Shown in pieces: positions 1 to 33,401 of a stretch of DNA of 64,000 nt. Under the pieces are notes generated by a model that saw nothing but the letters and a program-made list of their open reading frames with translations, had not been told where the DNA came from and did not search any database. The first letter of the stretch is position 1. Each line of letters opens with the position of its first letter. A program made the position numbers and the translations under genes. The stretch lies in assembly GCF_056746865.1 (NCBI RefSeq), contig NZ_CM163382.1. One strand, 5' to 3'.

Positions 1-3000
1 CATCGCCACGGACGACGTGATTAACGCCGCAGAAAAAGGCGCTGATTTAACGCTTTCCGGCACCACCACTAACGTAGAACCCGGTCAAACCGTCACCGTC
101 ACCTTTGGCGGGAAAAATTACACTGCCAGCGTAGCGAGCGATGGTAGCTGGACTGCCACCGTACCCGCCGCCGATCTGGCGTCATTACCCGAGGGCAGCG
201 CCTCCGCACAGGCCAGCGTCAGCAATATCAACGGCAATAGCGCCTCGGCGGTGCATAACTACAGCATCGATAGCAGTGCCCCGACCATCATTATCAATAC
301 CGTCGCCAGCGACAATATCGTCAACGCCAGCGAAGCCGATGCGGGTGTGACGGTGAGCGGCAGCACCACCGCTGAAGCGGGGCAGATTGTTACGGTTACG
401 CTCAATAGCCCGACCGTGCAGACCTATCAGGCAACGGTGCAGGCGGACGGCAGCTGGAGCATCAATATTCCGGCGGCAGATCTTGAGGCATTGACCGATG
501 GCAGCCACACCCTGACCGCCACGGTCAATGACAAAGCGGGCAACCCGGCGAGCACCACGCATAATCTGGCGGTGGATCTCACCGTTCCGGTACTTACCAT
601 CAACACCATTGCGGGCGACGATATTATTAACGCCGCCGAACACGGGCAGGCGCTGGTGATTTCCGGTTCCAGCACTGGCGGAGAAGCGGGGGATGTCGTC
701 ACCGTCACGCTAAACAGTAAAACCTACACCACGACGCTGGATGCTTCCGGCAACTGGAGCGTCGGCGTTCCGGCGGCGGATGTCACGGCACTGGGCAGCG
801 GCCCGCAAACTGTTACCGCCACGGTGACTGATGCGGCGGGTAATAGCGATAACGAGACGCACACGGTTACCGTTAACCTTGCTGCGCCGACCATTGGCAT
901 TAACACCATTGCTACCGATGACGTGATTAACGCCACCGAAAAAGGCGCGGATCTGCAAATTTCCGGCACCAGTAATCAGCCAGCAGGCACCACAATTACG
1001 CTGACGCTGAACGGGCAAAATTACACTGCGACGACGGACGCCGCAGGCAACTGGAGCACCACGGTGCCAGCTTCCGCAGTCGGTGCGCTGGGCGAAGCCA
1101 GCTACACGGTGACGGCGAACGTCACCGACAGCGCGGGCAACAGCAATTCCGCCAGTCATAACGTGCAGGTCAATACCGCGCTGCCTGGCGTCACCCTTAA
1201 TCCGGTGGCGAGCGACGACATTATTAACGCTGCCGAATCGGGCGTGGCGCAGACCATCAGCGGGCAGGTGACGGGCGCGGCGGCGGGCGATACGGTTACC
1301 GTAACGCTTGGCGGGAAAACTTACACCGCTACCGTGCAGGGGAATTTAAGCTGGAGCGTGGACGTTCCGGCGGCGGATATTCAGGCCATCGGCAATGGCG
1401 ACCTGACAGTTAATGCCTCGGTGACCAACGGCGTTGGTAATACCGGCAGCGGTTCGCGAGATATTACTATCGACGCTAATTTGCCTGGCCTGCGCGTCGA
1501 TACCGTGGCGGGCGATGATGTGGTCAACAGCATCGAGCACAGTCAGGCACTGGTGATAACTGGTAGCAGCAGCGGGCTGGCGGCGGGCGCGGCGCTGACG
1601 GTGGTGATTAACACGGTCACTTACGCTGCGACAGTATTAGCCGATGGCACATGGAGCCTTGGCGTTCCGGCGGCAGATGTGGGCAACTGGCCTGCGGGTA
1701 CGGTGAATATCACGGTTTCAGGTGCCACTAGCGCAGGAAACCCGGTCACTATCACCCATCCGGTCACCGTCGATCTGGCGGCGGTGGCGATCTCCATTAA
1801 CACCGTTTCCGGCGACGATGTGATTAACGCCGCCGAAAAAGGGGCAGATTTAACCCTTTCCGGCAGCACCTCCGGCGTGGAGCTGGGGCAAACGGTCACC
1901 GTTACCTTTGGCGGCAAAACCTACACCGCCACCGTAGCGGGCGATGGCAGCTGGACAACCAGTGTACCTGCTGCCGATCTCGCCGCATTACGCGACGGCG
2001 ACGCCACGGTACAGGCCAGCGTCAGCAATATTAACGGCAACACGGCTTCGGCGACCCACGCCTACAGCGTCGATGCCACGGCACCGACGTTTGCCATTAA
2101 CACCATCGCCACCGACGATATTCTGAACGCCGCCGAGGCGGGCAATCCGCTAACCATCAGCGGCAGTAGCACCGCCGAAGCGGGGCAGACGGTAACCGTC
2201 ACGCTTAATGGCGTGACTTACACCGGCACCGTCCAGGCGGATGGCAGCTGGAGCGTCAGCGTGCCGACGGCGGATCTCAGCAATCTGACCGCCAGCCAGT
2301 ACACGGTCAGCGCCTCGGTAAGCGATAAAGCGGGTAACCCGGCAACCGCCACTCATGGGCTGGCGGTGGATCTCACCGTTCCCGTATTAACCATCAACAC
2401 CGTCTCCGGCGATGACATTATTAACGCTGCCGAACACGGACAGGCGCTGGTGATCTCCGGCTCCAGCACTGGCGGGGAAGCGGGCGATGTCATCACCGTC
2501 ACGTTAAACAGTAAAACCTACACCACCACGCTGGACGCTTCCGGCAACTGGAGCGTCGGCGTTCCGCTGTCAGACGTTACTGCCCTTGGCAGCGGCCCGC
2601 AAACCATCACAGCTACCATTACCGACGCGGCAGGCAACAGCGATGATGCCAGCCGCACGGTCACCGTGAATCTGACCGCGCCAACCATTGGCATTAATAC
2701 TATTGCCGACGATGACGTGATTAACGCTACGGAAAAAGGCGCGGATCTGCAAATTACCGGCACCAGTAATCAGCCCGCAGGCACCACAATAACGGTGACG
2801 CTGAACGGGCAAAATTACACCGCCATAACAGATGCTTCCGGCAACTGGAGCGCCACGGTGCCAGCGTCAGCGGTCAGTGCATTGGGTGAGGCCAACTACA
2901 CGGTAACCGCGAACGTCACCGACAGCGCAGGCAACAGCAATTCCGCCAGCCATAACGTGCTGGTCAACAGCGCGTTACCTGCCGTCACCATTAACGCGGT

Positions 3001-6000
3001 GGCGGCCGATGACATTATTAACGCTGCCGAAGCGGGCAATGCGCAAACCATCAGTGGGCAGGTGACGGGTGCCGCGGCGGGCGACACAGTTACCGTTACG
3101 CTGGGTGGCAACACCTACACCGCCACGGTGCAGGCTAATTTAAGCTGGAGCGTTAGCGTGCCGGCGGCGGATATTCAGGCCATCGGCAATGGTAATCTCA
3201 CAGTAAACGCCTCGGTCACTAATGGCGTGGGCAACACCGGCAGCGGCTCGCGCGATATCACGATCGATGCCAATCTGCCTGGCTTGCGGGTCGATACCGT
3301 GGCGGGCGATGATGTTATTAACAGCATTGAGCACAATCAGGCGCTGGTGATAACAGGTAGCAGCACCGGGTTAACGGCGGGAACGGCGTTAACGGTCGAG
3401 ATTAACAACGTTACTTATGGCGCGACGGTATTAGCCGACGGCACGTGGAGCCTCGGTATTCCGGCGGCAGACGTCAGCAACTGGCCTGCGGGTACGGTGG
3501 ATATTACGGTAAGCGGCACCAACAGCGCCGGAACAACCTCTACCATTACCCATCCGGTTACCGTCGATCTGGCGGCGGTCGCCATCACCATTAACACCCT
3601 TTCCGGCGATGATGTGATCAACGCCGTGGAGAAAGGCGAAACGCTGGTCGTAAGCGGCAGCACCAGCGGTGTGGAAGCTGGGCAGACGGTGACCGTCACC
3701 TTTGGCGGTAAAAATTACACCACCACTGTGGAAGCCAACGGCAGCTGGACGGTGAATGTGCCGCCTGCCGATCTCGCTGCGCTACCGGACGGCGCGGGCA
3801 ACGTGCAGGCGAGCGTCAGCAATATTAACGGCAACAGCGCCCAGGCCGATCGCGCGTATAGCGTCGATGCCACCGCGCCGCTTATTACTATCAACACCAT
3901 CGCCAGCGACGATACTCTTAACGTGAGCGAAGCGGGCGCGGGGATCACCATCAGCGGCACCACCACGGCGCAGGCCGGGCAGACGCTGACCGTCACGCTC
4001 AATAACAACACGTACCAGACCACCATTCTCGCGGATGGCACCTGGAGCGTGAACGTTCCGGCAACGGATTTAAGCGGATTAACCGCCAGCAGTTATACCG
4101 TGACTGCGACGGTGAGCGACAAAGCGAGCAACCCGGCAAGCGCCGATCATGCGCTGGCGGTGGACGTTACCGCTCCGGATCTCACCATTAACACCGTCGC
4201 GGGCGATGACATCATCAACGCTATCGAACACGGGCAGGCGCTGGTGGTGAGCGGCACCAGCACGGGCGCGGCGGCAGGCGATGTGGTGACCGTCTCGCTC
4301 AACGGCAAAAACTACACCACCACGCTGGATGCCTCTGGTAACTGGAGCGTCGGTATCCCGGCGGCAGATGTGACGGCGCTGGCAACCGGAAGCCAGACCA
4401 TTACTGCCAGCCTGAGCGATCGCGCGGGCAACAGCGACAGCGCTACCCATAATGTCACCGTTGATCTTAGCGGCCCGACGCTGACCATCAGTACCGTCTC
4501 CGGCGACGACATCATCAATAATGCGGAGAAAACTCAGGATCTGACCATCAGCGGCGGCTCCAGCGGTCTGGCGACCGGCACCACGGTCACCGTGATGTTG
4601 AACGGCCTGGCGTACAGCGCCACCACCGATAGTTCCGGCAACTGGAGCGTTACCGTGCCTGCTTCGGCGGTCGGTGCCCTGGGCGAGGCGGTCTATTCGA
4701 TTAGCGCCAGCGCCACCGACAGCGCGGGCAACAGCGGCAGTACCACCCATACGGTGAATGTCGAATCGCTCCTGCCTGGGGTGATCATTAATACCGTGGC
4801 GGGCGATGACATTATCAACGCCGCTGAAATCGTTGTGGCGCAGACCATCAGCGGTCAGGTCACGGGAACGGCGGTTGCCGGGAATACGGTGATTGTCACC
4901 ATTGGCGGCAATCAATATAACGCCACCGTGCAGTCAGATTTAAGCTGGAGCGTCAGCGTACCGGCGAACGTTTTGCAGGCGCTGGGTAACGGTGAACTGA
5001 CCATCAGCGCCTCGGTGACCAATTCCGCAAATAATACCAGCACCGCGACGCACGATATCGTGATAGATGCCAACCTGCCAGGTCTGCGCGTCGATACCGT
5101 GGCAGGCGATGATGTGATTAACAGCATCGAGCACACTCAGGCGTTGGTGATCACCGGTAGCAGTAGCGGACTGGCGGCGGGCGCGGCGTTGACGGTGGTT
5201 ATCAATAGCGTCACCTACGGCGCAACGGTACTCGCCGATGGCAGCTGGAGCGTCGGTGTTCCGGCGGCAGATGTCACAAACTGGCCTGCGGGAACGGTCA
5301 ATATTGCCGTTTCTGGCACCAATACCGCCGGAACCACAACCAGCATTAGCCATCCGGTCACGGTCGATCTCGCGGCCGTGGCGATTACCATTAACACCCT
5401 TTCCACTGACGATGTGATTAATGCCGCCGAAAAAGGCAGCGATTTGCAGCTCTCCGGCACCACCTCCGATGTGGAAGCGGGGCAAACCATCACCGTTATC
5501 TTCGGCGGCAAAAGCTACACCACCACGGTTGCCGCGGGCGGCACCTGGGGGCTGACAATCCCAGCAGCCGATCTCGCAACCTTGCCTGACGGCGCAGCAA
5601 ACGTCCAGGCCAGCGTCAGCAACGTCGCAGGTAACAGCGCCCAGGCAACGCATGCTTACAGCGTCGATGCCACCGCGCCTTCCGTTACCATCAACACCAT
5701 CGCCACGGACGATATTCTTAACGCCGACGAAGCGGGATCGGCGCTGACCATCAGCGGCACCAGCACGGCGGAAGCCGGGCAGACGGTGACCGTGACGCTA
5801 AACGGCGTCAATTACAGCGGCAACGTGCAGGCAGACGGGAGCTGGAGCGTCAGCGTCCCGACCGGCGATTTAGCTAACCTCACTGCCAGCCCCTATACGG
5901 TGAGCGCAGCGGTCAGCGACAAAGCCGGAAATCCGGCCTCGGCGACGCATAACCTGACGGTGGATCTTGTTGCGCCGGTCGTTACCATTAACACGGTAGC

Positions 6001-12000: not shown

Positions 12001-15000
12001 ACTCAACGCCGCCGAACAGCAGCAGCCGTTAACCCTTAACGGCTCGACCAGCGCGGAAGTAGGGCAGACGGTAACCGTCACCTTTGGCGGCAAAACTTAT
12101 ACCGCCACGGTGGCCGCCAATGGCACCTGGGCGCTGAACGTGCCTGCGGCAGATCTGGCCGCGCTCGGGCAGGGCGCACAGACCATTACCGCCAGCGTGA
12201 ACGATCGCGCCGGTAACCCCGGTCAAACCACGCACGCCCTGACCGTCGATACCGTTGCGCCAACGGTCACCATCGCCACGGTGGCGGGTGACGATATTAT
12301 CAACAACGCCGAACAGCTCGCTGGGCAAACCATCAGCGGCACCACCACCGCTGAAGTGGGCCAGACGGTGACCGTCACCTTTAACGGTCAGAGCTGGACT
12401 GCAACGGTCGGCAGCGGCGGAAGCTGGTCGGTGTTTATTCCGGCGCAGCAGTTTGCCGGATTAAGCGACGGCAGCTACACCATTAGCGCGACGGTTAGCG
12501 ATCAGGCCGGAAACCCTGGTAGCGCCAGCCGTGGCGTGACATTGAACGGCGACGTCCCCTCCGTCACCATCAACACCTTTGCGGGCGATGATGTGGTGAA
12601 TGCGGCGGAGCACGGCTCGTCGCTGGTGATCAGCGGCACCACCACCGCCCCAGTCGGGCAGACGCTGACCCTGACCTTAAACGGCAAAACCTACACTACC
12701 ACGGTACAGACCGGCGGTAGCTGGAGCTACACCCTCGGCAGCGCCGATGTCACCGCGCTGGCGGACGGCAATGCCTACGTGATTAACGCCTCGGTGAGCA
12801 ACGCCATTGGCAACACCGGCAGCAGCAATCACACCATTACCGTCGACCTCAGCGCCCCGGCGATGGGCATTAATATCGATTCCCTGCAAGCCGACACTGG
12901 CCTTAGCTCCAGCGACTTTATCACCAGCGTCAGCCCGGTGGTGGTCAACGGCTCGCTCACCGCCGCGCTTGCCAGTAACGAGACGGCGCAAATCAGTATC
13001 GACGGCGGCGTAACCTGGACCACGCTTACCGTTACCGGCACGACCTGGCGCTATAACGACAGCCGCACGCTGACCGATGGTAACTATCTCTATCAGGTAC
13101 GGGTGATTGACGCAGCGGGCAACGTCGGTGCCACTGACAGCCAGAATGTGGTGATCGACACCATCGCGCCAGATCCAGCAGTAAAAACCATCGCCATCAG
13201 CGCGATCACCACCGATACTGGATTGATTACTAACGATTTTGTCACCAGCGACACGACGCTTGCGGTGAGCGGCACGCTGGGGGCGGCGCTTTCTGCCGGT
13301 GAGTTCGCGCAAATCAGCATTGATGGCGGCACCACCTGGCAGAATCTTTCGGTAAGCGGTTTGACCTGGACATATCTTGACGGGCGTACGCTGACTGACG
13401 GCAACTACAACTATCAGGTACGGGTGATCGACACCGCCGGAAATATCGGCGCGACTGCCAGCCAGATAGTCACCGTGGATACCACCGCGCCGCTGGCGAG
13501 CAAAACCATCGCCATTGCGGGCATTAGCGATGACACCGGGTTAAGCAGCAGCGATTTTGTTACTCGCGACACTACGCTTACTGTGCGCGGCACGCTCGGC
13601 GCGGCGCTGGCGGCAGACGAACGGGCGCAAATCAGCCTCGACGGCGGTGTCACCTGGACCACGTTAACCGTTATCGGCACCAGCTGGAGCTATGCCGATG
13701 GTCGCACACTGACCGACGGCACCTGGAACTACACGGTGCGGGTGGTGGATCTGGCGGGGAACGTTGGGCAGACCGCAACGCAAAACGTGGTGGTCGACAC
13801 CACCAGCCCGGAAGCGGCGAAAAGTATCACCATTACCGGTATCAGCGATGACACCGGAGCCAGCAGCAGCGATTTTATTACCAGCGACACCTCGCTTACC
13901 GTGCGCGGCGTATTGGGGGCGGCGCTCGGCGCTAACGAATTCGCGCAAATCAGTACCGACAACGGCGCAACCTGGGTGAACGTGACCGTCGCCGCAGACG
14001 GCCTTAACTGGAGTTACGTTGACGGACGCACGCTCACCAACGGCACCACCACCTGGCAGGTGCGGGTGGTGGATCTGGCGGGCAACGTTGGCGCAACCGG
14101 CAGCCAGTCGGCGCAGATTGACACCGTGAACCCGGCGCAGGTACTCACCATCGCCAGCATCAGCACCGACACGGGGAGTTCGGCAACTGACTTTATCACC
14201 AGCGATACCTCGCTCACGCTGACCGGTTCGCTGGGGGCGGGGCTTGCCAGCGGCGAAGTGGCGCAGATTAGCCTCGACGGCGGCGCGACCTGGATCACGC
14301 TCACCACCAACGGCACGCAGTGGACCTACACTGACAGCCGCACGCTGACCGACGGCAGCTACGTTTACCAGGTGCGGGTGCTGGATCTGGCGGGGAATAC
14401 TGGCCCGGTGGTGTCGAAAACGGTGGTGGTCGATACGATTAACCCCACCGCGACGCCGACCATTGTGTCGTACACTGATGACGTCGGGCAGCGGCAGGGG
14501 ACATTAAGCAGTTCGCAGGCCACCGACGACACTACGCCGTTGCTGAACGGCGTGCTCTCCGGCCCGCTTGCCAGCGGTGAAGTGGTTTACCTCTACCGTA
14601 ACGGCCTGCTGTTAGGCGCGGTAACGATGGTAGGCGCACTGAACTGGACCTACAGCGACAGCGGGCTGGTGAGCGGTGCCTACACCTACAGCGCGCGAGT
14701 GGTGGATCTGGCGGGGAATATCACCTCCTCCAGTGATTTTGTCCTGATGGTCGATACCTCTATTCCGACCACGCTGGCGCAAATTACCAGCCAGACCACG
14801 CGCGATACTACGCCGATTATCAGCGGGGTGATCACCGCCGCGCTTGCCAGCGGGCAGTATGTTGAAGTGGTGATCAACGGCAAAACCTACACCTCTGAAC
14901 CGGGCGGTGCGGTGGTGGTCGATCCGGCGCACAACACCTGGTATGTACAGTTGCCGGATACCGACGCGCTGGCGGCTTCTGCGACCGCCTATAACGTCAC

Positions 15001-17248
15001 CGCGCAGGTAAAAAGCTCGGCGGGCAACGGCAATAACGCCAATATTAGCAACGGCACGGTGACGGTTAACGCGGCGATTGATTACACACCGACCTGGACC
15101 ACCGCCAGCAAAACCACCGCCTGGGGGCTGACCTACGGCCTCGACACGCACGGAATGTGGACGGTGCTGGCAAACCAGCAGGTAATGCAATCGACTGACC
15201 CACTCACCTGGTCGAAGACCGCGCTGACGCTGTATCAGAGCGGCAACAACTACGCCACCAGCTCCATCGCCGATTACGACCGTAACGGCACGGGCGATCT
15301 GTTTATCACCCGTGATGACTACGGTACAGGCTATATCAACGGCTTTACCAATAACGGCGACGGCACCTTTTCCAGCGCTATTCAGGTCACCGTCGGCACC
15401 CTGACGTGGTACGGCTCGATTGTGGCATTTGATAAAGAGGGCGACGGCTATCTCGACTTCTGGATTGGCGACGCGGGCGGGCCGGACTCCAACACCTTCC
15501 TGTGGAACAACGCAGGTACGCTGGTAGGTAACTCCACTACGTCGAACAGCGGCGGTAGCGCCACGGTGGGCGGGGCGGTGACGGGGTATCTTTCGCTCAA
15601 CGAAGGTTCTGGCGTCGATCTGAACAATGACGGCAGGATCGACCTGGTTCAGCACACCTACAACCTGAACAACTATTACACGCTATCTTCGCTCATCAAC
15701 CAGGGGAATGGCACGTTTGTCTGGGGGCAGAACACCACCAATACCTTCCTGAGCGGGGCGGGTAGTGGCGCTATGAGCAGCAGCGTTTCTATGACCTGGG
15801 CCGATTTCGATGGCGACGGCGATATGGACCTCTTCCTGCCTGCCAGCCAGGGAAGAGCTAACTACGGCTCGCTGTTATTCAACACCAACGGCGTGCTGGG
15901 CAGTCCGGTGGCGGTGGGCGCAACGGCAACCACCTACGCCAGCCAGTTTAGCGTGGCGGTGGACTGGAACCACGACGGCCTGATGGATATCGCCCGTATC
16001 GCCCAGACCGGACAATCGTATCTTTACACCAACGTTGGTGGTGCCAGCAACTGGACACAATCGGCCCTCGGCGGCAGCCAGAGCGGTACCACCAGCGGCG
16101 TGGCGGCAATGGACTACGACTGGGACGGCGCGGTGGATGTACTGGTGACCAAACAGTCGGGCAGCGTGTTCCTGATCCGCAACACCAACACGGTGAGCTA
16201 CGGCACTTCGCTACACCTGCGCATCACCGATCCCAACGGCATTAACGTCTATTACGGTAATACCGTAAAACTGTATAACTCGGCGGGGGTGCTGGTCGCC
16301 ACGCAAATCATTAACCCGCAGTCGGGGATGGGGGTTAACGACACCTCGGCGCTGGTCAACTTCTACGGGCTGAATGCCGGAGAAACCTACAACGCGGTGC
16401 TGATCAAATCCACTGGCACCACCGCCAGCAATATCGACCAGACGGTCAACACCAGCTGGGGCGGCTTACAGGCCACCGATGCCACTCACGCTTACGACCT
16501 CAGCGCCGAAGCAGGCACCGCGAGCAACAATGGCAAGTTCGTCGGCACGGGCTATAACGACACCTTCTTTGCCACCGCAGGTACTGACACTTACGACGGC
16601 TCCGGCGGCTGGGTGTACAGCTCCGGCACCGGAACGTGGCTGGCAAACGGCGGCATGGACGTGGTTGATTTCCGCCTCTCGACGGTGGGCGTGACCGCGA
16701 ACTTAAGCAGCACCGCCGCACAGGCCACCGGCTTTAACACCTCGACATTTACCAATATCGAAGGCATTTCCGGCTCGAATTTTAACGACACTCTGACCGG
16801 CAGCAGCGGCGATAACCAACTGGAAGGGCGCGGCGGCAACGACACCCTTAACATCGGAAACGGCGGTCACGATACCTTGCTCTATAAATTGCTCAACGCC
16901 AGTGACGCTACCGGCGGCAACGGCTCAGACGTGGTGAATGGCTTTACGGTAGGGACATGGGAAGGCACCGCCGACACCGATCGCATTGATATCCGCGAGT
17001 TGTTACAGGGCAGCGGCTACACCGGCAACGGCAAAGCCAGCTACGTCAACGGCGTGGCAACGCTGGATGCGCAGGCTGGAAACATCGGTGATTTTGTCAA
17101 AGTCACCCAGAGCGGCAGCGACACCATCGTGCAGATCGACCGCGACGGCACGGGCGGCACTTTTGCGGCAACTAACGTGGTCACGCTGACGGGCGTGCAT
17201 ACCGACCTCGCCACTTTGCTGGCGAATCATCAGTTGATGGTGGTGTAG
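1..17248 (+). CDS. Giant T1SS-secreted repeat adhesin (SiiE/LapA/Bap-like), 5' partial; 5743 codons in window
   Basis: Reading frame is open from window start (frame 2) to the stop at 17248. About 12.8 kb of ~100-aa Ig-like repeats, then a second repeat class, FG-GAP/VCBS-like motifs, RTX-like Gly/Asp-rich repeats and an acidic C-terminus, with a T1SS ABC transporter gene 4 bp downstream. Confidence 0.9.
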   Translation, partial: IATDDVINAAEKGADLTLSGTTTNVEPGQTVTVTFGGKNYTASVASDGSWTATVPAADLASLPEGSASAQASVSNINGNSASAVHNYSIDSSAPTIIINTVASDNIVNASEADAGVTVSGSTTAEAGQIVTVTLNSPTVQTYQATVQADGSWSINIPAADLEALTDGSHTLTATVNDKAGNPASTTHNLAVDLTVPVLTINTIAGDDIINAAEHGQALVISGSSTGGEAGDVVTVTLNSKTYTTTLDASGNWSVGVPAADVTALGSGPQTVTATVTDAAGNSDNETHTVTVNLAAPTIGINTIATDDVINATEKGADLQISGTSNQPAGTTITLTLNGQNYTATTDAAGNWSTTVPASAVGALGEASYTVTANVTDSAGNSNSASHNVQVNTALPGVTLNPVASDDIINAAESGVAQTISGQVTGAAAGDTVTVTLGGKTYTATVQGNLSWSVDVPAADIQAIGNGDLTVNASVTNGVGNTGSGSRDITIDANLPGLRVDTVAGDDVVNSIEHSQALVITGSSSGLAAGAALTVVINTVTYAATVLADGTWSLGVPAADVGNWPAGTVNITVSGATSAGNPVTITHPVTVDLAAVAISINTVSGDDVINAAEKGADLTLSGSTSGVELGQTVTVTFGGKTYTATVAGDGSWTTSVPAADLAALRDGDATVQASVSNINGNTASATHAYSVDATAPTFAINTIATDDILNAAEAGNPLTISGSSTAEAGQTVTVTLNGVTYTGTVQADGSWSVSVPTADLSNLTASQYTVSASVSDKAGNPATATHGLAVDLTVPVLTINTVSGDDIINAAEHGQALVISGSSTGGEAGDVITVTLNSKTYTTTLDASGNWSVGVPLSDVTALGSGPQTITATITDAAGNSDDASRTVTVNLTAPTIGINTIADDDVINATEKGADLQITGTSNQPAGTTITVTLNGQNYTAITDASGNWSATVPASAVSALGEANYTVTANVTDSAGNSNSASHNVLVNSALPAVTINAVAADDIINAAEAGNAQTISGQVTGAAAGDTVTVTLGGNTYTATVQANLSWSVSVPAADIQAIGNGNLTVNASVTNGVGNTGSGSRDITIDANLPGLRVDTVAGDDVINSIEHNQALVITGSSTGLTAGTALTVEINNVTYGATVLADGTWSLGIPAADVSNWPAGTVDITVSGTNSAGTTSTITHPVTVDLAAVAITINTLSGDDVINAVEKGETLVVSGSTSGVEAGQTVTVTFGGKNYTTTVEANGSWTVNVPPADLAALPDGAGNVQASVSNINGNSAQADRAYSVDATAPLITINTIASDDTLNVSEAGAGITISGTTTAQAGQTLTVTLNNNTYQTTILADGTWSVNVPATDLSGLTASSYTVTATVSDKASNPASADHALAVDVTAPDLTINTVAGDDIINAIEHGQALVVSGTSTGAAAGDVVTVSLNGKNYTTTLDASGNWSVGIPAADVTALATGSQTITASLSDRAGNSDSATHNVTVDLSGPTLTISTVSGDDIINNAEKTQDLTISGGSSGLATGTTVTVMLNGLAYSATTDSSGNWSVTVPASAVGALGEAVYSISASATDSAGNSGSTTHTVNVESLLPGVIINTVAGDDIINAAEIVVAQTISGQVTGTAVAGNTVIVTIGGNQYNATVQSDLSWSVSVPANVLQALGNGELTISASVTNSANNTSTATHDIVIDANLPGLRVDTVAGDDVINSIEHTQALVITGSSSGLAAGAALTVVINSVTYGATVLADGSWSVGVPAADVTNWPAGTVNIAVSGTNTAGTTTSISHPVTVDLAAVAITINTLSTDDVINAAEKGSDLQLSGTTSDVEAGQTITVIFGGKSYTTTVAAGGTWGLTIPAADLATLPDGAANVQASVSNVAGNSAQATHAYSVDATAPSVTINTIATDDILNADEAGSALTISGTSTAEAGQTVTVTLNGVNYSGNVQADGSWSVSVPTGDLANLTASPYTVSAAVSDKAGNPASATHNLTVDLVAPVVTINTVAGDDIINATEHGQAQIISGSATGATTGNTVSVTIGTTTYTTVLDANGNWSIGVPASVISALAQGNVTITATVTDSAGNSGTASHTVSVALGAPILSINTIAVDDIINATEKGADLAISGSSNQPAGTQITVTLNGQNYTTTADASGNWSVTVPASRVSTLGEATYTVTAAATDADGNSGSASHNVQVNTALPGVTINVVASDDIINAAEAGAGQSISGQVTGAAAGDTVTVTLGEATYTATVQANLSWSVDVPASALQALGNGELTISASVTNSVGNTGNGTREITIDANLPGLRIDTVAGDDVVNIIEHGQALVITGSSSDLAAGSNVTLTINGQTYVAAVLADGSWSVGVPAVDVSAWPAGTVTITASGNTTAGNPVSVTHPVTVDLTAVAVSINAITADDVINAAEKGAALTLSGSTSGVEAGQTVTVTFGGKTYTASVAANGSWSTTVPATDMAALRDGDASAQANVSNVNGNSATTTHAYSVDATAPTVTINTIAGDDILNAAEAGAALTITGSSTAEAGQTVTVTLNGANYTGTVQTDGSWSISVPPADLSALTASNYTVSAAVSDKVGNPASVNHNLTVDTSVPVVTINTVAGDDVINATEHAQAQIISGSATGAATGSAVTVTIGTNTFTTVLDASGNWSVGVPASVVSALANGTVTINASVTDAAGNSGSATHLVTVNTGLPSITFNAISGDNVLNADEKGQPLTISGSSTGLATGAQVTVTLNGHNYSATTDAAGNWTLTVPVSDLAALGQANYIVSASATSAAGNIASSQANLLVDSGLPGVTINTVAGDDIINAAEAGADQTISGVVTRAAAGDTVTVTLGGNTYTTTVQGNLSWSISVPAADLQALGNGDLTINASVTNANGNTGSGTRDITIDANLPGLRVDTVAGDDIVNSIEHGQALVITGGSSGLNAGVPLTITINGTAYSATVQADGSWSVGIPATNVSAWPAGALTVDVAGQSSAGNPVSVSHPFTVDLTAVAISINTVASDDVINAAEKGTDLTLSGSTSGIESGQTVTVTFGGKTYTASVAANGSWSVNVPAADLATLPDGAANVQASVSSASGNSASATHAYSVDASAPTLTINTIASDDILNATEAGSPLTISGTSTAETGQTVTVTLNGATYSGNVQADGSWSVSVPPSALGALTASNYTVSATVNDKAGNPGSTSHNLAVDTTAPVLTINTVAGDDIINDAEHAQALVISGTSSGGEAGDVVSVVLNGKTYTSTLDASGNWSVGVPAADVTALGSGAQTITASVSDRAGNSDDASRTVTVSLSAPVISINTIAGDDVINATEKGSDLTLSGTSDQPAGTAITVTLNGQNYSATTDASGNWSVTVPASAVSALGEATYSVTASVTNAQGNSSTASHNVQVNTALPGVTINPVATDDIINAAEAGSAQTISGQVTGAAAGSTVTVELGGKTYTATVQADLSWSVSVPAADWQALGNGELTVNASVTNAVGNTGSGTRDITIDASLPGLRVDTVAGDDVVNIIEHSQAQVITGSSSGFAVGTALNVVINNQTYAATVLANGSWSVGVPATDVSNWPAGTLNITVSGANSAGTQTSITHPLTVDLTTVAVSINSITSDDVINAAEKGAALTLSGSTSGVEAGQTVTITFGGKTYTTTVAANGSWSTTVPAADMAALRDGDASAQVRVTNVNGNSATATHEYSVDSAAPTVTINTIASDNIINASEAAAGVTVSGTSTAQTGQTLTVTLNGTNYQTTVQADGSWSLTLPASDLTALANNGYTLTATVSDLAGNPGSASKGVTVDTTAPVISFNTVAGDDVINRVEHTQAQIISGTATGAVAGDRLVVTIAGQQYVTSTDASGNWSVGVPASVISGLADGTVTISATITDSAGNSSTQTHNVQVNTAAVSLSVSTISGDNIINAAEAGSALTLSGTGTNFAAGTVVTVLLNGKGYSATIQNNGSWSVNVPAADVAALADGTSYTVSASAQDSAGNSATASRSVAVDLTAPVISINTVSTDDRLNAAEQQQPLTLNGSTSAEVGQTVTVTFGGKTYTATVAANGTWALNVPAADLAALGQGAQTITASVNDRAGNPGQTTHALTVDTVAPTVTIATVAGDDIINNAEQLAGQTISGTTTAEVGQTVTVTFNGQSWTATVGSGGSWSVFIPAQQFAGLSDGSYTISATVSDQAGNPGSASRGVTLNGDVPSVTINTFAGDDVVNAAEHGSSLVISGTTTAPVGQTLTLTLNGKTYTTTVQTGGSWSYTLGSADVTALADGNAYVINASVSNAIGNTGSSNHTITVDLSAPAMGINIDSLQADTGLSSSDFITSVSPVVVNGSLTAALASNETAQISIDGGVTWTTLTVTGTTWRYNDSRTLTDGNYLYQVRVIDAAGNVGATDSQNVVIDTIAPDPAVKTIAISAITTDTGLITNDFVTSDTTLAVSGTLGAALSAGEFAQISIDGGTTWQNLSVSGLTWTYLDGRTLTDGNYNYQVRVIDTAGNIGATASQIVTVDTTAPLASKTIAIAGISDDTGLSSSDFVTRDTTLTVRGTLGAALAADERAQISLDGGVTWTTLTVIGTSWSYADGRTLTDGTWNYTVRVVDLAGNVGQTATQNVVVDTTSPEAAKSITITGISDDTGASSSDFITSDTSLTVRGVLGAALGANEFAQISTDNGATWVNVTVAADGLNWSYVDGRTLTNGTTTWQVRVVDLAGNVGATGSQSAQIDTVNPAQVLTIASISTDTGSSATDFITSDTSLTLTGSLGAGLASGEVAQISLDGGATWITLTTNGTQWTYTDSRTLTDGSYVYQVRVLDLAGNTGPVVSKTVVVDTINPTATPTIVSYTDDVGQRQGTLSSSQATDDTTPLLNGVLSGPLASGEVVYLYRNGLLLGAVTMVGALNWTYSDSGLVSGAYTYSARVVDLAGNITSSSDFVLMVDTSIPTTLAQITSQTTRDTTPIISGVITAALASGQYVEVVINGKTYTSEPGGAVVVDPAHNTWYVQLPDTDALAASATAYNVTAQVKSSAGNGNNANISNGTVTVNAAIDYTPTWTTASKTTAWGLTYGLDTHGMWTVLANQQVMQSTDPLTWSKTALTLYQSGNNYATSSIADYDRNGTGDLFITRDDYGTGYINGFTNNGDGTFSSAIQVTVGTLTWYGSIVAFDKEGDGYLDFWIGDAGGPDSNTFLWNNAGTLVGNSTTSNSGGSATVGGAVTGYLSLNEGSGVDLNNDGRIDLVQHTYNLNNYYTLSSLINQGNGTFVWGQNTTNTFLSGAGSGAMSSSVSMTWADFDGDGDMDLFLPASQGRANYGSLLFNTNGVLGSPVAVGATATTYASQFSVAVDWNHDGLMDIARIAQTGQSYLYTNVGGASNWTQSALGGSQSGTTSGVAAMDYDWDGAVDVLVTKQSGSVFLIRNTNTVSYGTSLHLRITDPNGINVYYGNTVKLYNSAGVLVATQIINPQSGMGVNDTSALVNFYGLNAGETYNAVLIKSTGTTASNIDQTVNTSWGGLQATDATHAYDLSAEAGTASNNGKFVGTGYNDTFFATAGTDTYDGSGGWVYSSGTGTWLANGGMDVVDFRLSTVGVTANLSSTAAQATGFNTSTFTNIEGISGSNFNDTLTGSSGDNQLEGRGGNDTLNIGNGGHDTLLYKLLNASDATGGNGSDVVNGFTVGTWEGTADTDRIDIRELLQGSGYTGNGKASYVNGVATLDAQAGNIGDFVKVTQSGSDTIVQIDRDGTGGTFAATNVVTLTGVHTDLATLLANHQLMVV
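2..12850 (+). repeat. Tandem array of ~300-bp (~100-aa) Ig-like domain repeats organised as a ~1.8-kb higher-order unit of six domain subtypes, at least 7 copies
   Basis: Recurring motifs (INAAEKGADLTLSG, TVTFGGKTYTA, INAAEHGQALVISG, INATEKGADLQISG, AQTISGQVTGAAAGDTVTVTLGG, VNSIEHSQALVITG) return in the same order. Antisense artefact ORFs recur at 1621, 3415, 5215, 7009, 8806 and 10600, giving a period of about 1797 bp. Confidence 0.85.
12851..14450 (+). repeat. Second class of ~105-aa repeats in the adhesin (about six copies)
   Basis: Repeated pattern DTGLSSSDFITSDTSLTVRGTLGAALAA.E.AQIS.DGG.TW..LTV.G..W.Y.DGRTLTDG.Y.YQVRV.D.AGN; two more degenerate copies follow to about 15050. Confidence 0.6.
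15270..16150 (+). repeat. FG-GAP/VCBS-like calcium-binding repeats (probable beta-propeller) in the adhesin
   Basis: Spaced Dx[DN]xDGxxD motifs: DYDRNGTGDLF, FDKEGDGYLDF, DLNNDGRIDLV, DFDGDGDMDLF, DWNHDGLMDIA, DYDWDGAVDVLV. Confidence 0.55.
16540..16890 (+). repeat. RTX-like glycine/aspartate-rich nonapeptide repeats preceding the C-terminal secretion signal
   Basis: GTGYNDTFFATAGTDTYDGSGG and GSNFNDTLTGSSGDNQLEGRGGNDTLNIGNGGHDTLLY resemble GGxGxDxUx repeats; the protein ends ...TLLANHQLMVV. Confidence 0.6.
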
Positions 17249-17251
17249 AGA

Positions 17252-19414
17252 ATGAAAAAAAATGCCCAGTCCGTGGAAGCCTGGCTGGAGGCGATGATCG
17301 CCGTGGCGCGTTATTACCGCCTTGATTTTTCTCAGGAGAATGTGCGCGCGACCGTCAACTGGGAGCGCGACAGTAAGCGGGAGGAGTTACTCACCGACAT
17401 GGCGCGGCAGTTGGGGATGGGGCTTCGGCTGGTGGAGTTCTCCACCGACTCGCTCAACCCGTGGCGGCTGCCGTTGATCGCCGTTTTTGATAATCAACAA
17501 ATTGGCGTGATCACCCGCCGTGACAATCACGACAATATCAGCATTCAGTTTAGCGGTGACGAAGGGCTGGAAACTACGCTTAACGTCGCGGATGTTGAGG
17601 ATAAAATCGTTGAACTGGCGCTACTGCGCCCGCTCAGCGCCATCCCTGACGCGCGGGTAGATGACTATATTCGCCCGTATCAGGCGAACTGGTTCTGGAG
17701 CCTTTCGCTAAAAGACTGGCGGCGCTACGGCGATATTATGCTGGCCTCGCTGGTGGCGAACGTGCTGGCGCTGGCGGCGATGATTTTCTCGATGCAGGTT
17801 TACGACCGGGTGGTTCCGGCGCAATCGTACCCGACGCTATGGGTGCTGTTCGCCGGGGTGATGATGGCGATCCTGTTTGAGTTCTGTATGCGCATGGTGC
17901 GCACACATCTTTCGGATGTGATCGGCAAGCGGGCGGATCTGCGCATTTCGGATCGCGTTTTTGGTCACGCATTACGGCTGAAAAATAACGTGCGATCGAA
18001 ATCCACCGGATCGTTTATCTCGCAGATCCGCGAGCTGGAATCGGTGCGGGAGCTGATTACTTCCACCACCATCGGCGCGGTGGCGGATCTGCCGTTCTTC
18101 CTGCTGTTTGTCTTTATTTTATGGATGATCGGCGGCTGGCTGGTGCTGGTGGTTTTGCTGGCGCTGCCGTTATTGGTGATCCCCGGCCTGCTGGTGCAAC
18201 GCCCGCTGGCGCGGCTGGCGAACGAAGGGATGCGCGAGTCGGCGGTGCGTAACGCTACGCTGGTGGAAGCCGTGCAGTCGATTGAAGATATTAAGCTGCT
18301 GCGCGCCGAACAGCGTTTTCAGAATCAGTGGAACCACACCAACGACGTGGCCTCGTCCATCAGCATGAAGCAACGTTTTCTCACCGGGCTACTGCTCACC
18401 TGGACCCAGGAAGTGCAGTCCATCGTTTACGTCGTGGTGCTGTTGGTGGGCTGCTTTATGGTAATGAACGGTGACATGACCACCGGCGCGCTGGTCGGGA
18501 CGACGATCCTGGCTTCGCGCACCATCGCGCCGCTGTCGCAGATATCCGGCGTGCTCTCGCGCTGGCAGCAGGCGAAAGTGGCGCGCAACGGACTTGATGA
18601 ACTGATGAAGCGCCCGGTGGATCAGCCGGAACACGGCAAACTGGTGCATAAAGCGGTGCTACACGGCAATTATCAGTTCAGCAACGCTATCTTTTATTAC
18701 GATGAAGAAGAGAAAATTGCCGATGTGGCGATTGGCAAACTCAACATTCAGGCCGGAGAGAAAATCGCCATTCTTGGGCGCAACGGCGCGGGTAAATCAA
18801 CGCTACTGCAAATGCTCGCCGGAATGCGTATCGCCCAGCAGGGGCAGGTGCTGCTGGATAACATCAGCATCGGTCAGCTTGATCCGGCGGATCTGCGCCG
18901 CGACATGGGGCTGCTGAGCCAGACCGGGAGACTCTTTTTCGGTTCGCTGCGGGAAAACCTGACGATGGGGATGCCGGAAGCCAGCGATGAAGATATCGAA
19001 CGCGCGTTAACCCTCAGCGGGGCGCTGCCGTTTGTGCAGAAGCAGAAAAACGGCCTCAACTACATGATTCAGGAAGGGGGATTTGGCCTCTCTGGTGGTC
19101 AGCGGCAAACGCTGCTGCTGGCGCGGCTGCTCATCTCTCAACCCAATATCGTGCTGCTCGATGAACCCAGCGCCTCGCTGGACGAAATGGCGGAAGCGCA
19201 TTTAATCGAACAACTGAAACAGTGGATTGGCCATCGCACGCTGATTATCGCCACTCACCGCACGGCGATGCTGCAACTGGTGGACCGCATTATCGTGATG
19301 GATCAGGGGCGGATTGTGATGGATGGCGCGAAAGAGGCCATTTTGCGTGAACAGAGCGAACCCACGGCGCGACGGGTGGTGTTGCAGGAGAAGAATAAGG
19401 GGTCTGCCGCATGA
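17252..19414 (+). CDS. T1SS ABC transporter (ATPase/permease, HlyB/LapB-like) with N-terminal C39-like domain
   Basis: 720 aa. Walker A GRNGAGKST, ABC signature LSGGQRQ, Walker B IVLLDEP and H-loop ATHR are present, with hydrophobic segments in the middle. Starts 4 bp after the adhesin stop and overlaps the next gene by 4 bp. Confidence 0.9.
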   Translation: MKKNAQSVEAWLEAMIAVARYYRLDFSQENVRATVNWERDSKREELLTDMARQLGMGLRLVEFSTDSLNPWRLPLIAVFDNQQIGVITRRDNHDNISIQFSGDEGLETTLNVADVEDKIVELALLRPLSAIPDARVDDYIRPYQANWFWSLSLKDWRRYGDIMLASLVANVLALAAMIFSMQVYDRVVPAQSYPTLWVLFAGVMMAILFEFCMRMVRTHLSDVIGKRADLRISDRVFGHALRLKNNVRSKSTGSFISQIRELESVRELITSTTIGAVADLPFFLLFVFILWMIGGWLVLVVLLALPLLVIPGLLVQRPLARLANEGMRESAVRNATLVEAVQSIEDIKLLRAEQRFQNQWNHTNDVASSISMKQRFLTGLLLTWTQEVQSIVYVVVLLVGCFMVMNGDMTTGALVGTTILASRTIAPLSQISGVLSRWQQAKVARNGLDELMKRPVDQPEHGKLVHKAVLHGNYQFSNAIFYYDEEEKIADVAIGKLNIQAGEKIAILGRNGAGKSTLLQMLAGMRIAQQGQVLLDNISIGQLDPADLRRDMGLLSQTGRLFFGSLRENLTMGMPEASDEDIERALTLSGALPFVQKQKNGLNYMIQEGGFGLSGGQRQTLLLARLLISQPNIVLLDEPSASLDEMAEAHLIEQLKQWIGHRTLIIATHRTAMLQLVDRIIVMDQGRIVMDGAKEAILREQSEPTARRVVLQEKNKGSAA

Positions 19415-20586
19415 ACGGACAACTGCAATACAACCGTGGCCTGACTGAACCCCGCTTGCCGCGTTCGGCGCTGGCGGTACGCGTTACCGCTGTGATGCTG
19501 CTCTGTTTTCTCGGCTGGGCGTGGTACTTCCAGCTTGATGAAGTCACCACCGGCAGCGGCACGGTAGAACCCTCCGGGCGCGAACAGGTGGTGCAGTCGC
19601 TGGAAGGCGGAATTCTGTATCATCTCGACGTCAAGGTTGGCGATATTGTTGAACAGGGCCAGCCACTGGCGCAGCTTAACCGCACCAAAACGGAATCCGA
19701 CGTCCAGGAAGCAATGTCGCGGCTGTACGCGGCGCTGGCAACCTCGGCGCGGCTGCGGGCGGAAGTGAGTAATAAACCGCTGGTCTTCCCTGACGAACTG
19801 AATAAATTCCCCGAACTTATCGAGTCGGAAACGGCGTTGTACAACACTCGCCGCGATGGGCTGAACAAAGCCACCACCGGGCTGACGCAGGGGATTAGCC
19901 TGGTCAACCGCGAACTGGCGATGACCCAGCCGCTGGTAAAACAGGGGGCGGCGAGCAGCGTTGAAGTGCTGCGCCTGCAACGCCAGGCCAATGAACTGGA
20001 AAACAAACTCAGCGACGTGCGCACGCAATACTACGTTCAGGCGCGCGAAGAGTTAGCAAAAGCCAATGCGGAAGTGGAAACCCAGCGTTCGGTGATCCGT
20101 GGACGGGAAGACTCCCTCACCCGGCTCAACTTTACCGCGCCGGTACGTGGCATTGTTCAGGACATTGACGTCACCACGGTTGGCGGCGTTATTGCCCCCG
20201 GTGGTAAACTGATGACCATCGTGCCGCTGGATGAGCAACTGCTGATCGAGGCAAAAATCTCCCCGCGCGATGTGGCGTTTATCCATCCGGGGCAAAAATC
20301 GCTGGTGAAAATAACCGCCTACGATTACTCCATCTACGGCGGCCTGCCGGGAGAAGTGGCGGTGATATCACCAGACACCGTGCAGGATGAAGTACGGCGC
20401 GATGTTTATTACTATCGGGTGTACATTCGCACTTTCAGCAACCATCTGGAAAATAAAAGCAAACAGCAGTTTCCGATATTCCCCGGTATGGTGGCGACGG
20501 TCGATATCCGCACCGGCAAAAAAAGCGTGCTGGATTATCTGTTGAAACCCTTTAACAAAGCACAGGAGGCGTTGCGCGAACGATGA
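19411..20586 (+). CDS. T1SS periplasmic adaptor (HlyD-family membrane fusion protein)
   Basis: 391 aa. N-terminal transmembrane helix ([20 protein letters not shown]), long coiled-coil-prone central region, C-terminal beta domain; start overlaps the ABC transporter stop. Confidence 0.85.
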
Positions 20587-20990
20587 ACATTAGCGATGTA
20601 GCAAAAATTACCGGCCTGACCAGCAAAGCCATTCGCTTCTATGAAGAGAAGGGGCTGGTGACGCCGCCGATGCGCAGCGAAAATGGTTATCGAACCTACA
20701 CGCAGCAGCATCTCAACGAACTGACCTTACTGCGCCAGGCGCGCCAGGTGGGCTTTAACCTGGAAGAGAGCGGCGAACTGGTGAATCTGTTTAACGATCC
20801 GCAGCGTCACAGTGCCGACGTCAAACGTCGCACCCTGGAGAAAGTGGCGGAGATCGAGCGACATATCGAAGAACTGCAATCCATGCGCAACCAGCTGTTG
20901 GCGCTGGCGAATGCCTGCCCTGGCGATGACAGCGCCGACTGCCCGATTATCGAAAATCTCTCCGGCTGCTGTCATCATCGGGCGGGGTGA
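20583..20990 (+). CDS. cueR: Copper-responsive MerR-family regulator CueR
   Basis: 135 aa, [25 protein letters not shown]...[24 protein letters not shown], recognised as E. coli CueR with its C-terminal Cys metal-binding motif. Confidence 0.95.
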
Positions 20991-20993
20991 AAA

Positions 20994-21197
20994 TCAGTTA
21001 ATCCCCGTTTGCACCGAAAGAATATGCTGCAAACTTTCTACCATAATGCGCCCCGACTGAAATAAGCCTTCCTGGATTTCGTTGTTAACATTCACAGCGT
21101 GAACCAGGGAGGCTAATAACACCACTTGCAAGAAGGCAAAAATAAACGCACCGATAATCATAATATGCGTCAGGGGGATTTTCCTTTGCTCTTTCAT
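20994..21197 (-). CDS. Small single-pass membrane protein (67 aa), last gene of the autotransporter operon
   Basis: Hydrophobic helix IMIIGAFIFAFLQVVLLASLV. Its ATG overlaps the stop of the upstream lipoprotein gene (ATGA), suggesting translational coupling. Confidence 0.45.
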   Translation of the reverse strand: MKEQRKIPLTHIMIIGAFIFAFLQVVLLASLVHAVNVNNEIQEGLFQSGRIMVESLQHILSVQTGIN

Positions 21198-21616: not shown

Positions 21617-21669
21617 TGTTAACCTTAAATAATGTACGGAAAATTGCGAATAAGAAATTGCTGTTAAAA

Positions 21670-23454: not shown

Positions 23455-23472
23455 GCATTTTTTCTCTTTCAA

Positions 23473-24183: not shown

Positions 24184-24194
24184 TTTGCCAATGC

Positions 24195-24365
<171 letters not shown>

Positions 24366-24367
24366 CA

Positions 24368-32797: not shown

Positions 32798-32809
32798 TGA
32801 CAGGCGTTA

Positions 32810-32930: not shown

Positions 32931-32942
32931 GCAATAAATATG

Positions 32943-33340: not shown

Positions 33341-33401
33341 ATCTGTATTCTGGTGCAACCATTCTGTTCTCACGACAATCGCCGTTTCAGAATACCGCCC
33401 A

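Follow-up and report, generated by a model that had tools for sequence, protein, structure and literature searches.

The window, by which we mean the whole 64,000-nucleotide stretch of contig NZ_CM163382.1 (assembly GCF_056746865.1) that was analysed, opens with a giant adhesin gene, followed by an ABC exporter gene, a HlyD-family adaptor gene and the core gene cueR (Table 1). The first-pass annotation had described the first three as co-oriented and tightly coupled. Within the window this was borne out, with a 3-nt gap between the adhesin and ABC exporter genes and 4-nt overlaps at the ABC/adaptor and adaptor/cueR junctions, but the operon comprises four genes. The fourth encodes a TolC-family protein (416 bits, TIGR01844 above cut-off) and was seen just 5' of the window in a 100%-identical complete genome; in NZ_CP023142.1, ybaT and the TolC-family gene precede siiEA. 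Both this gene and the N-terminal module of the adhesin lie outside the window and are known only from identical genomes.

Table 1. Features of the siiEA locus (positions in the window)
Feature	Position	Strand	Evidence
siiEA, giant adhesin gene of RTX/BapA type by sequence, 5' end cut by the window	2..17248	+	open frame without stop; exact suffix of WP_000052484.1
Extender region: 43 tandem ~100-aa Ca2+-stabilised Ig-like domains	2..12868	+	phmmer domain table; NF033510 Ca_tandemer
Seven Ig-like domains of a second type (Big_13 / Ig_like_ice)	12911..15088	+	Pfam Big_13; NF012196
Distal module, predicted ligand-binding: FG-GAP beta-propeller plus beta-sandwich, CRTAC1-like fold	15089..16500	+	Pfam FG-GAP_3 x3; AlphaFold2
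RTX nonapeptide (beta-roll) repeats	16538..16876	+	Pfam HemolysinCabind E 2e-4; CyaA RTX block matches
C-terminal type I secretion target domain	16928..17236	+	TIGR03661 T1SS_VCA0849, 34.4 bits, cut-off 17.6
Type I secretion ABC permease/ATPase, LssB/LapB subfamily, with N-terminal degenerate C39-like domain	17252..19414	+	TIGR03375
HlyD-family periplasmic adaptor (membrane fusion protein)	19411..20586	+	TIGR01843
Last 96 nt of the adaptor gene, surviving in K-12 as the right part of the ybaT-cueR spacer	20487..20582	+	local alignment
cueR, Cu(I)-responsive MerR-family regulator, core gene	20583..20990	+	NF007590 308 bits, full length

The ABC exporter has 720 aa (ATG at 17252) and scored 836.8 bits against TIGR03375 (cut-off 693). 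It carries the Pfam domains ABC_membrane and ABC_tran and a weak Peptidase_C39 match at residues 12-98, and there is no cysteine among its residues 1-170. The adaptor (391 aa) scored 327.7 bits against TIGR01843 (cut-off 208.65) and was aligned up to the last profile position. Thus a dedicated ABC exporter, a membrane fusion protein and a TolC-like channel all score above the cut-offs of TIGR03375, TIGR01843 and TIGR01844 and are encoded by adjacent or overlapping genes. The proposal that these genes form a type I secretion operon serving a giant modular adhesin was supported. The secretion target domain, the LssB-family ABC protein and the HlyD adaptor all exceed curated cut-offs. No Rfam match was found inside 1-20586. 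A defence-system reading was dropped because PADLOC returned only generic ABC-ATPase similarities.

On the + strand, frame 2 has no stop codon between base 2 and the TAG at 17246-17248 (5748 codons), so the adhesin gene continues beyond the 5' edge of the window, as the first reading had stated. The window is E. coli chromosomal DNA, and the full gene has 6925 codons in a 100%-identical complete E. coli genome. Of the encoded protein the window covers residues 1178-6925, which agree exactly with the C-terminal part of the 6925-aa product WP_000052484.1, named "BapA-related adhesin SiiEA" (NZ_CP023142.1). An interruption of this frame in the true sequence had been named as grounds for withdrawing the proposal; the frame is uninterrupted, and at least three independent complete genomes match all 17248 adhesin bases at 100% identity. 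No exact internal repeat is longer than 32 nt, and the 1.8-kb super-repeats are only ~72% identical to each other. Together with the matches in independent genomes, this indicates that the reading frame is no assembly artefact. Tandem Repeats Finder reported no repeats in 1-17300, since the repeats are too long or too diverged for it, and BLAST self-alignment and phmmer were used instead.

The full protein contains 52 extender domains, and the super-repeats of ~1.8 kb correspond to six domains each: DNA self-alignment of the extender region gave offsets of ~1.8, 3.6, 5.4, 7.2 and 9.0 kb at ~72% identity. In the PDB, the extenders matched the MpAFP RII tetra-tandemer (4P99, E 8e-59), an RTX adhesin (5IRB, E 2e-41) and 6XI3. 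The seven Ig-like domains of the second type weakly matched SiiE BIg50-52 (2YN3, E 2.5e-7). The earlier count of more than 40 Ig-like domains agrees with 43 + 7 = 50 in the window, and Ig-like extenders make up about 85% of the adhesin. The distinct C-terminal module noticed at first sight resolves into an FG-GAP propeller, RTX repeats and a type I secretion target domain. FG-GAP_3 was matched three times in the distal module (E 3e-9 to 3e-7), and its AlphaFold2 model (mean pLDDT 86, pTM 0.90) was most similar to CRTAC1 (9ETN, E 1.6e-14), followed by the fungal GlcNAc lectins PVL/PAL and integrin alpha propellers. We therefore predict, with good confidence, that the tip of the adhesin is a CRTAC1-like or integrin-like propeller. 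The RTX repeat signal is modest (Pfam E 2e-4), and short parallel strands appear there in the predicted model. Upstream sequence, which the first-pass annotation had wished to see for an N-terminal retention module, does hold one: in the full-length gene of the 100%-identical genome, Pfam BapA_N matched residues 5-132 (E 2.8e-19) and NF033677 scored 72 bits. A sequence search of the first 300 residues against the PDB gave chance-level matches only. By analogy, BapA_N would serve as a retention plug.

[quoted passage not shown] The siiEA protein has all three, as BapA_N, 52 tandem Ig-like domains, and HemolysinCabind with TIGR03661. From profile matches, it shares with Salmonella BapA and the BapA-prefix family the BapA_N domain, tandem Ig-like repeats, a C-terminal secretion signal and a dedicated ABC/adaptor/outer-membrane set. 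However, it is about twice as long as BapA (3824 aa), is covered by a curated "exception" model of its own and has an FG-GAP propeller tip. MpIBP of Marinomonas primoryensis, MhLap of Marinobacter and LapA of Pseudomonas have a comparable retention module, Ca2+-rigidified extenders, ligand-binding region and beta-roll with secretion signal; the extenders are homologous to this RTX adhesin class (4P99, E 8e-59; 5IRB; 6XI3), and the exporter also belongs to the LssB/LapB subfamily. In siiEA, a CRTAC1-like propeller replaces the ice-, sugar- or peptide-binding or vWFA domains of those proteins.

The kinship with LapA raises the question of whether this is a LapA-type two-step adhesin, whose retention is controlled by the periplasmic protease LapG and the c-di-GMP receptor LapD. 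The exporter subfamily and a TAAG di-alanine motif at residues 97-100 of the full E. coli protein would fit such a system. However, the motif is missing at the aligned position in the N-terminal domain homologues of Pseudomonas and Citrobacter, and a search of the window, of the reference sequence for about 12 kb upstream of it and of the neighbours of two homologous loci (L007 and L037) revealed no LapG or LapD gene; we consider LapA-type control unlikely. The first-pass annotation had named the SiiE, LapA and BapA types of giant adhesin; the present one is BapA/LapA/MpIBP-like (BapA_N; 4P99, E 8e-59) and not SiiE-like (2YN3, only E 2.5e-7). Salmonella SiiE (SPI-4) is likewise a giant Ig-repeat adhesin exported by type I secretion, the gene name siiEA recalls it, and the seven C-proximal Ig-like domains are distantly similar to SiiE BIg50-52. 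A SiiE/SPI-4-type system, in which the adhesin is only transiently retained under the MotAB-like proteins SiiA/SiiB, is nevertheless very improbable: no siiA/siiB-like gene accompanies the TolC, adhesin, ABC and adaptor genes, the protein carries a BapA_N domain at its N-terminus, MpIBP/Lap-type extenders are a far closer match to its 52 main repeats (E 8e-59), the gene order differs, and PGAP labels the product "BapA-related". Judged by sequence, the siiEA product is an RTX/BapA-type adhesin and no orthologue of SiiE. RTX repeats and type I secretion also occur together in secreted toxins, and the wording of the O-island 28 paper occasionally leans that way (PMC12758282). The reported phenotype is adherence and not cytotoxicity (PMC12758282), and the locus has no acyltransferase gene as in HlyA-type RTX cytolysins. 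The protein lacks a pore-forming hydrophobic domain and consists of about 85% Ig-like extenders with a retention-type BapA_N and a propeller tip. That it is a secreted toxin instead of a cell-bound adhesin is therefore extremely improbable.

Gene identities, architecture and synteny come from sequence, profile, fold and genome comparison, and the following steps draw on what is known of the RTX adhesins LapA, MpIBP and BapA. We propose that the unfolded adhesin would be recognised by the ABC exporter via its uncleaved C-terminal domain, with the cysteine-less C39-like domain of the exporter serving as a substrate-docking domain, and would then pass, with its C-terminus leading, through the conduit formed by ABC exporter, adaptor and TolC-family channel. 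Binding of extracellular Ca2+ would make the RTX roll and the extenders fold and stiffen. The adhesin would stay on the cell because the N-terminal BapA_N module, which would need no Ca2+ to fold, becomes stuck in or beneath the channel, and the resulting long fibre may present its propeller tip to a ligand on the host or another surface. The predicted propeller tip offers a concrete domain for the search for a ligand.

The family had been called poorly characterised in Escherichia, which did not hold: the siiEA locus is already known, with a RefSeq name, its own NCBIfam model and a 2025 functional study of the O157:H7 orthologue. NF047714 adhesin_SiiEA, an N-terminal model of 229 positions, matched residues 1-230 with 510.6 bits (cut-off 425). 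O-island 28 of EHEC O157:H7 comprises Z0608 (tolC28), Z0609/Z0615 (rtxA28/rtxB28), Z0634 (hlyB28) and Z0635 (hlyD28); it promotes early epithelial adherence and mouse colonisation and is activated by RstA and Ca2+ (PMC12758282). Z0608 and Z0609 are RpoS-dependent (PMC2907692). The present locus lies at the same site (ybaT ... cueR) in the same gene order, with 95.4% nucleotide identity over the ABC and adaptor genes and with identical genes on its flanks. O157:H7 strains and the reference genome encode the same adaptor and CueR proteins without any difference; the adhesin DNA reaches only about 93% identity. In O157:H7, O55:H7 and O145, the same genes lie between the TolC-family gene and cueR. 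Unlike in the present genome, where siiEA is intact, RefSeq annotates siiEA in EHEC strains as a pseudogene that contains an internal stop. Among the genomes examined, the nonsense codons lie at about codon 1462 in O157:H7, at 1139 in O55:H7 and at 1241 and 3395 in O145, where the TolC-family gene is also broken. From these sequences, the two "RTX genes" of O-island 28 appear to be parts of a single gene that a nonsense codon has split. Because the published EHEC strains have a siiEA pseudogene, what their phenotype says of intact siiEA is something we infer. We believe that the locus is very probably the E. coli siiEA locus, an orthologue of O-island 28 with the adhesin gene intact, encoding a four-gene type I secretion system for a calcium-stiffened surface adhesin and removed from K-12-type genomes by a deletion of ~25.8 kb.

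Of 5426 complete E. coli genomes, 959 carry the ABC and adaptor genes, which makes the locus an accessory one, and K-12 lacks it as expected at the outset: MG1655 has just ybaT, a 124-bp spacer and cueR there. The first-pass annotation had concluded that an accessory island was inserted directly upstream of cueR; its variable presence stood, but the insertion did not. The K-12 spacer is built wholly from both flanks of the locus. It consists of 28 bp from downstream of ybaT, joined to the terminal 96 bp of the HlyD-family gene, which are frameshifted. Over the latter, 88/96 columns are identical to the window with a 1-nt gap (7 substitutions and a 1-nt deletion in K-12), and the remnant encodes 11 adaptor residues, a frameshift and then 18 residues of the family-conserved C-terminus. 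This C-terminus (35 residues from 20487..20582) is conserved in the homologues of Pseudomonas, Halomonas, Legionella and Zymomonas. The same scar junction was found in 4458 of the 5426 genomes (about 82%), and all 4458 island-less genomes share this one junction. A genome that had never carried the locus would not hold 96 bp of the 3' end of the adaptor gene, and the K-12 arrangement therefore represents a loss. Read from these alignments, the ybaT-cueR spacer of K-12 is the scar of one ~25.8-kb deletion, and the locus predates the K-12-type arrangement.

The alternative is that a K-12-like ancestor with ybaT next to cueR acquired an island by horizontal transfer and that this island landed precisely before cueR. 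The absence of the locus from K-12 and about 82% of genomes would agree with this, as would its G+C content (57-62%, against about 50% in the flanking core genes) and the site of the nearest non-Escherichia relative, that of Pseudocitrobacter (ABC 95% amino-acid identity), which lies beside cho and shows that the cluster moves between genera. Against these stand the adaptor remnant in the K-12 spacer, matching a C-terminus conserved in distant genera, and the single junction common to all island-less genomes, which make such an insertion decidedly unlikely. Deletion thus remains our reading of the K-12 difference. Escherichia whittamii carries the locus at the same site, and among 80 related loci of other species the cueR-adjacent arrangement was confined to Escherichia. 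The G+C difference shows that the Escherichia lineage acquired the locus at some earlier time, so that "insertion" holds on that deeper timescale.

The stop codon of the adaptor gene is overlapped by the cueR start codon (cgATGa), and the AGGAGG Shine-Dalgarno sequence of cueR sits within 20487..20582. A scan of 17000-21300 with sigma-70 and terminator consensus sequences found promoter-like sites no commoner than in shuffles; on the + strand, the 200 nt preceding cueR contained no such site. In Salmonella, copA and cueR are presumably adjacent. We tentatively suggest, as a possibility less likely than not, a joint reading in which the locus is the older ybaT-cueR state in Escherichia, the ribosome-binding site and leader of cueR are adaptor-derived in every E. 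coli, cueR is coupled to the adhesin operon, and the broken EHEC siiEA differs in behaviour.

For EHEC, the differing nonsense codons among lineages matter for the interpretation of published mutants. As these lineages have independently broken siiEA, the intact form may behave differently: its product may be a retained fibre, as opposed to an unanchored C-terminal fragment in EHEC. For E. coli as a whole, the view shifts from the gain of an island to an ancestral locus that was mostly lost. In K-12 and most E. coli, the cueR leader is an unannotated relic of a gene for a type I secretion adaptor, which bears on cueR expression. If the joint reading is true, the ~18% of genomes keeping the locus would co-transcribe cueR with an adhesin operon controlled by RpoS, RstA and Ca2+ and couple it translationally through the ATGA overlap, so that the dose of the copper regulator would be linked to adhesin expression, whereas the ~82% with the scar would need read-through from ybaT or a promoter that arose in the scar to express cueR.

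Bases 15000-24500 and 1-17248 were each 100% identical to several complete genomes, which identifies the window as E. coli chromosome. The giant reading frame has zero stops and continues past the 5' edge, and the ABC exporter, adaptor and cueR genes follow it, tightly joined and all on the plus strand, as the first-pass annotation had described. The exporter scored 836.8 bits on TIGR03375 (LssB-type type I secretion permease/ATPase; cut-off 693 bits) and carries the membrane and ATPase domains typical of such proteins; the adaptor scored 327.7 bits on TIGR01843 (HlyD-family type I adaptor), with the alignment reaching the last profile position. The third product was full-length CueR. Residues 12-98 of the exporter gave a weak Peptidase_C39 match and its first 170 residues hold no cysteine; judged by sequence, this N-terminal domain is non-catalytic and C39-like. 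Such a domain also occurs in exporters of RTX proteins, for example HlyB. The G+C content was 57-62% over 1-20000 and then dropped to 43-54%; the minus-strand ORFs within the G+C-rich region are of the kind that commonly arises opposite coding sequence of high G+C. No RNA family was found by Rfam in 1-20586.

The complete genome NZ_CP023142.1 carries the gene at full length (20778 nt, 6925 codons), annotated "siiEA, BapA-related adhesin SiiEA", and the window protein is exactly its C-terminal 5748 residues. A TolC-family outer-membrane gene (product TIGR01844, 416 bits) lies 5' of siiEA there, and ybaT, glsA and copA lie further upstream. The SiiEA N-terminus scored 510.6 bits on the dedicated NCBI model NF047714 adhesin_SiiEA (cut-off 425 bits), and the N-terminal module sought upstream of the window was found in this genome as a BapA_N domain. 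The Gly/Ala-rich stretch LAGAAVGGGALGALLASGG, which may be a membrane or channel segment, is kept in homologues from E. coli, Pseudomonas and Citrobacter. The expectation of more than 40 Ig-like domains was confirmed by the extenders within the window alone. They belong to the Ca2+-stabilised "tandemer" class (NF033510) and show clear homology to extenders of the ice-binding adhesin of Marinomonas (4P99, E 8e-59), to a Marinobacter RTX adhesin (5IRB) and to a Lap protein (6XI3). At the DNA level, six domains form a 1.8-kb super-repeat; because its copies are only ~72% identical and no exact internal repeat exceeds 32 nt, assembly collapse of siiEA is unlikely.

Features of the siiEA locus, the SiiEA protein and the adjoining DNA (residues refer to the full protein)
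Feature	Position	Strand	Detail
siiEA frame	base 2 to TAG 17246-17248	+	5748 codons
ABC exporter ORF	ATG 17252	+	720 aa
Adaptor ORF	19411-20586	+	391 aa; 4-nt overlap with ABC ORF
cueR ORF	20583-20990	+	135 aa; 4-nt overlap with adaptor ORF, sequence cgATGa
BapA_N prefix domain	residues 5-132		Pfam E 2.8e-19
Gly/Ala-rich hydrophobic stretch (LAGAAVGGGALGALLASGG)	~residues 134-152, after BapA_N		in L001:1472-2011 (N-terminus of full gene), upstream of window
One Big_6/Big_13 domain	before extender array
52 tandem ~100-aa extender domains	residues 278-5466		43 inside window
Seven second-type Ig-like domains	after extenders		weak match to SiiE BIg50-52, E 2.5e-7
FG-GAP repeat region	after second-type Ig-like domains
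RTX nonapeptides	after FG-GAP region		Pfam E 2e-4
Type I secretion target domain	C-terminus		TIGR03661
67-aa ORF	in 20991-24367
140-aa lipoprotein ORF	in 20991-24367
600-aa ORF	21670-23472	-	signal peptide, coiled-coil repeats, YadA-like anchor
120-aa ORF	23821-24183
Rfam naRNA4 (REP-derived nucleoid-associated RNA)	24241-24318	-	71.9 bits; just before ybbJ

The last 719 residues of SiiEA were modelled with AlphaFold2 on an alignment of 32 homologues (mean pLDDT 86, pTM 0.90). The closest solved structure was CRTAC1 9ETN (E 1.6e-14, 528 aligned columns), followed by the fungal GlcNAc-binding propeller lectins PVL/PAL and integrin alpha propellers. On these matches, the distinct C-terminal module noticed at first pass is a predicted Ca2+-type FG-GAP propeller with a beta-sandwich, followed by a beta-roll and the secretion signal. 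Given how RTX adhesins are generally built, the propeller may be the ligand-binding tip. The sequence shows the parts and their homologies; by analogy with established RTX adhesins, SiiEA would be exported C-terminus first through an ABC-adaptor-TolC channel, fold outside the cell driven by Ca2+ and be retained by its N-terminal module, which would leave the propeller displayed at the end of a long, rigid stalk made up of about 60 Ig-like domains.

[quoted passage not shown] Among the SiiE, LapA and BapA types first proposed, kinship with BapA held through the N-terminal domain, and SiiE orthology did not: siiA and siiB are absent, the N-terminus and main repeat family differ, and only the seven second-type Ig-like domains show weak kinship with SiiE. 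Control by LapG/LapD is improbable, since homologues do not share the TAAG motif of residues 97-100 and no LapG or LapD gene was found near siiEA or in the inspected surroundings of homologous loci. A cytolysin was also rejected, as there is neither an acyltransferase nor a pore-forming domain.

The first-pass annotation regarded the operon as inserted directly upstream of cueR. K-12 indeed lacks the locus, with a ybaT-cueR spacer of 124 bp. The first 28 nt of this spacer match the sequence just downstream of ybaT in an island-bearing strain at 27 positions, and nt 30-124 (8899-8993 of the K-12 region L002) match the 3'-terminal 96 nt of the adaptor gene (window 20487-20582) in 88 of 96 columns, with 7 substitutions and a 1-nt deletion. 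Translated, the spacer gives 11 adaptor-type residues, a frame shift and then 18 residues; the intact adaptor ends in 35 residues, a C-terminus kept in Pseudomonas, Halomonas, Legionella and Zymomonas adaptors. Since the spacer carries this frame-shifted remnant, we read K-12 as a clean ~25.8-kb deletion that starts 28 nt past ybaT and ends 100 nt short of the adaptor stop, and not as an empty site; relative to K-12, the insertion claim was the wrong way round. The cueR AGGAGG ribosome-binding site is embedded in adaptor sequence that encodes Gln-Glu-Ala, and the cueR ATG overlaps the adaptor TGA. Two scar substitutions change CTGGATTAT to CTTGAATAT, creating a TTGAAT hexamer that might act as a cueR promoter element. 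No mention of the scar was found in the literature searched, and RefSeq annotates no pseudogene at it in K-12.

A single chromosomal copy of the ABC and adaptor genes is present in 959 of the 5426 complete E. coli genomes, with identities of 95-100%, and the scar junction occurs in 4458; together they account for all but nine. siiEA is much more variable (at least 99% in 84 genomes, mostly 80-95%). Close relatives outside E. coli fall into two groups: other Escherichia, namely E. whittamii (at the same ybaT-cueR site) and strain E1V33 (Escherichia sp.), and Pseudocitrobacter, whose exporter is 95% identical in amino acids but whose copy lies beside cho instead of cueR. More distant relatives, in Enterobacillus, Enterobacter, Cedecea and others, reach at most 77%, and none is adjacent to cueR. 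The high G+C content and the Pseudocitrobacter copy indicate an earlier acquisition by the Escherichia lineage. Separately, E. coli SCPM-O-B-8794 (L083) has a degraded locus, with a partial TolC-family gene and only the adhesin N-terminal part joined to a partial ABC gene before adaptor and cueR, an independent internal deletion that differs from the K-12-type scar. The siiEA of the E. whittamii representative has a stop near codon 105.

Segment 20991-24367, between cueR and ybbJ, has a lower G+C content (43-52%) and is a second stretch absent from K-12, where cueR abuts ybbJ; variable DNA thus lies to either side of cueR. Of the 600-aa ORF in this segment, just 349 aa are annotated in RefSeq. 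At ~32800-33400, the ybbP-mnmH gap has no rhs element here and an RHS core gene in O157:H7, another presence/absence difference in the window.

O157:H7, O55:H7 and O145 carry the TolC-family gene, siiEA, ABC, adaptor and cueR at the same site, with 95.4% nucleotide identity over ABC and adaptor, which identifies the siiEA locus as O-island 28 of EHEC O157:H7. A study in Gut Microbes (December 2025) showed that loss of O-island 28, or of Z0608, Z0609, Z0615, Z0634 or Z0635 singly, lowers Caco-2 adherence and mouse colonisation, that RstA binds the upstream region and that Ca2+ increases expression (PMC12758282). In EDL933, RpoS dependence is 55-fold for Z0608 and 20-fold for Z0609 (PMC2907692). 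A curated name, an NCBI model and these functional data make the view of a family poorly characterised in Escherichia outdated. In the three EHEC-lineage genomes examined, different nonsense codons interrupt siiEA: at about codon 1462 in O157:H7 (L004), W1139 to TAG in O55:H7 (L087), and E1241 to TAG plus Q3395 to TAG in O145:NM (L088), where codon 295 of the TolC-family gene is a stop as well. Given these nonsense codons, the published rtxA28 and rtxB28 (Z0609, Z0615) appear to be two fragments of a single gene. The siiEA operon here is intact and represents an E. coli adhesin secretion operon that is already known and named and was recently characterised, and what goes beyond annotation and the literature found is the K-12 deletion scar and the broken EHEC siiEA alleles alone.
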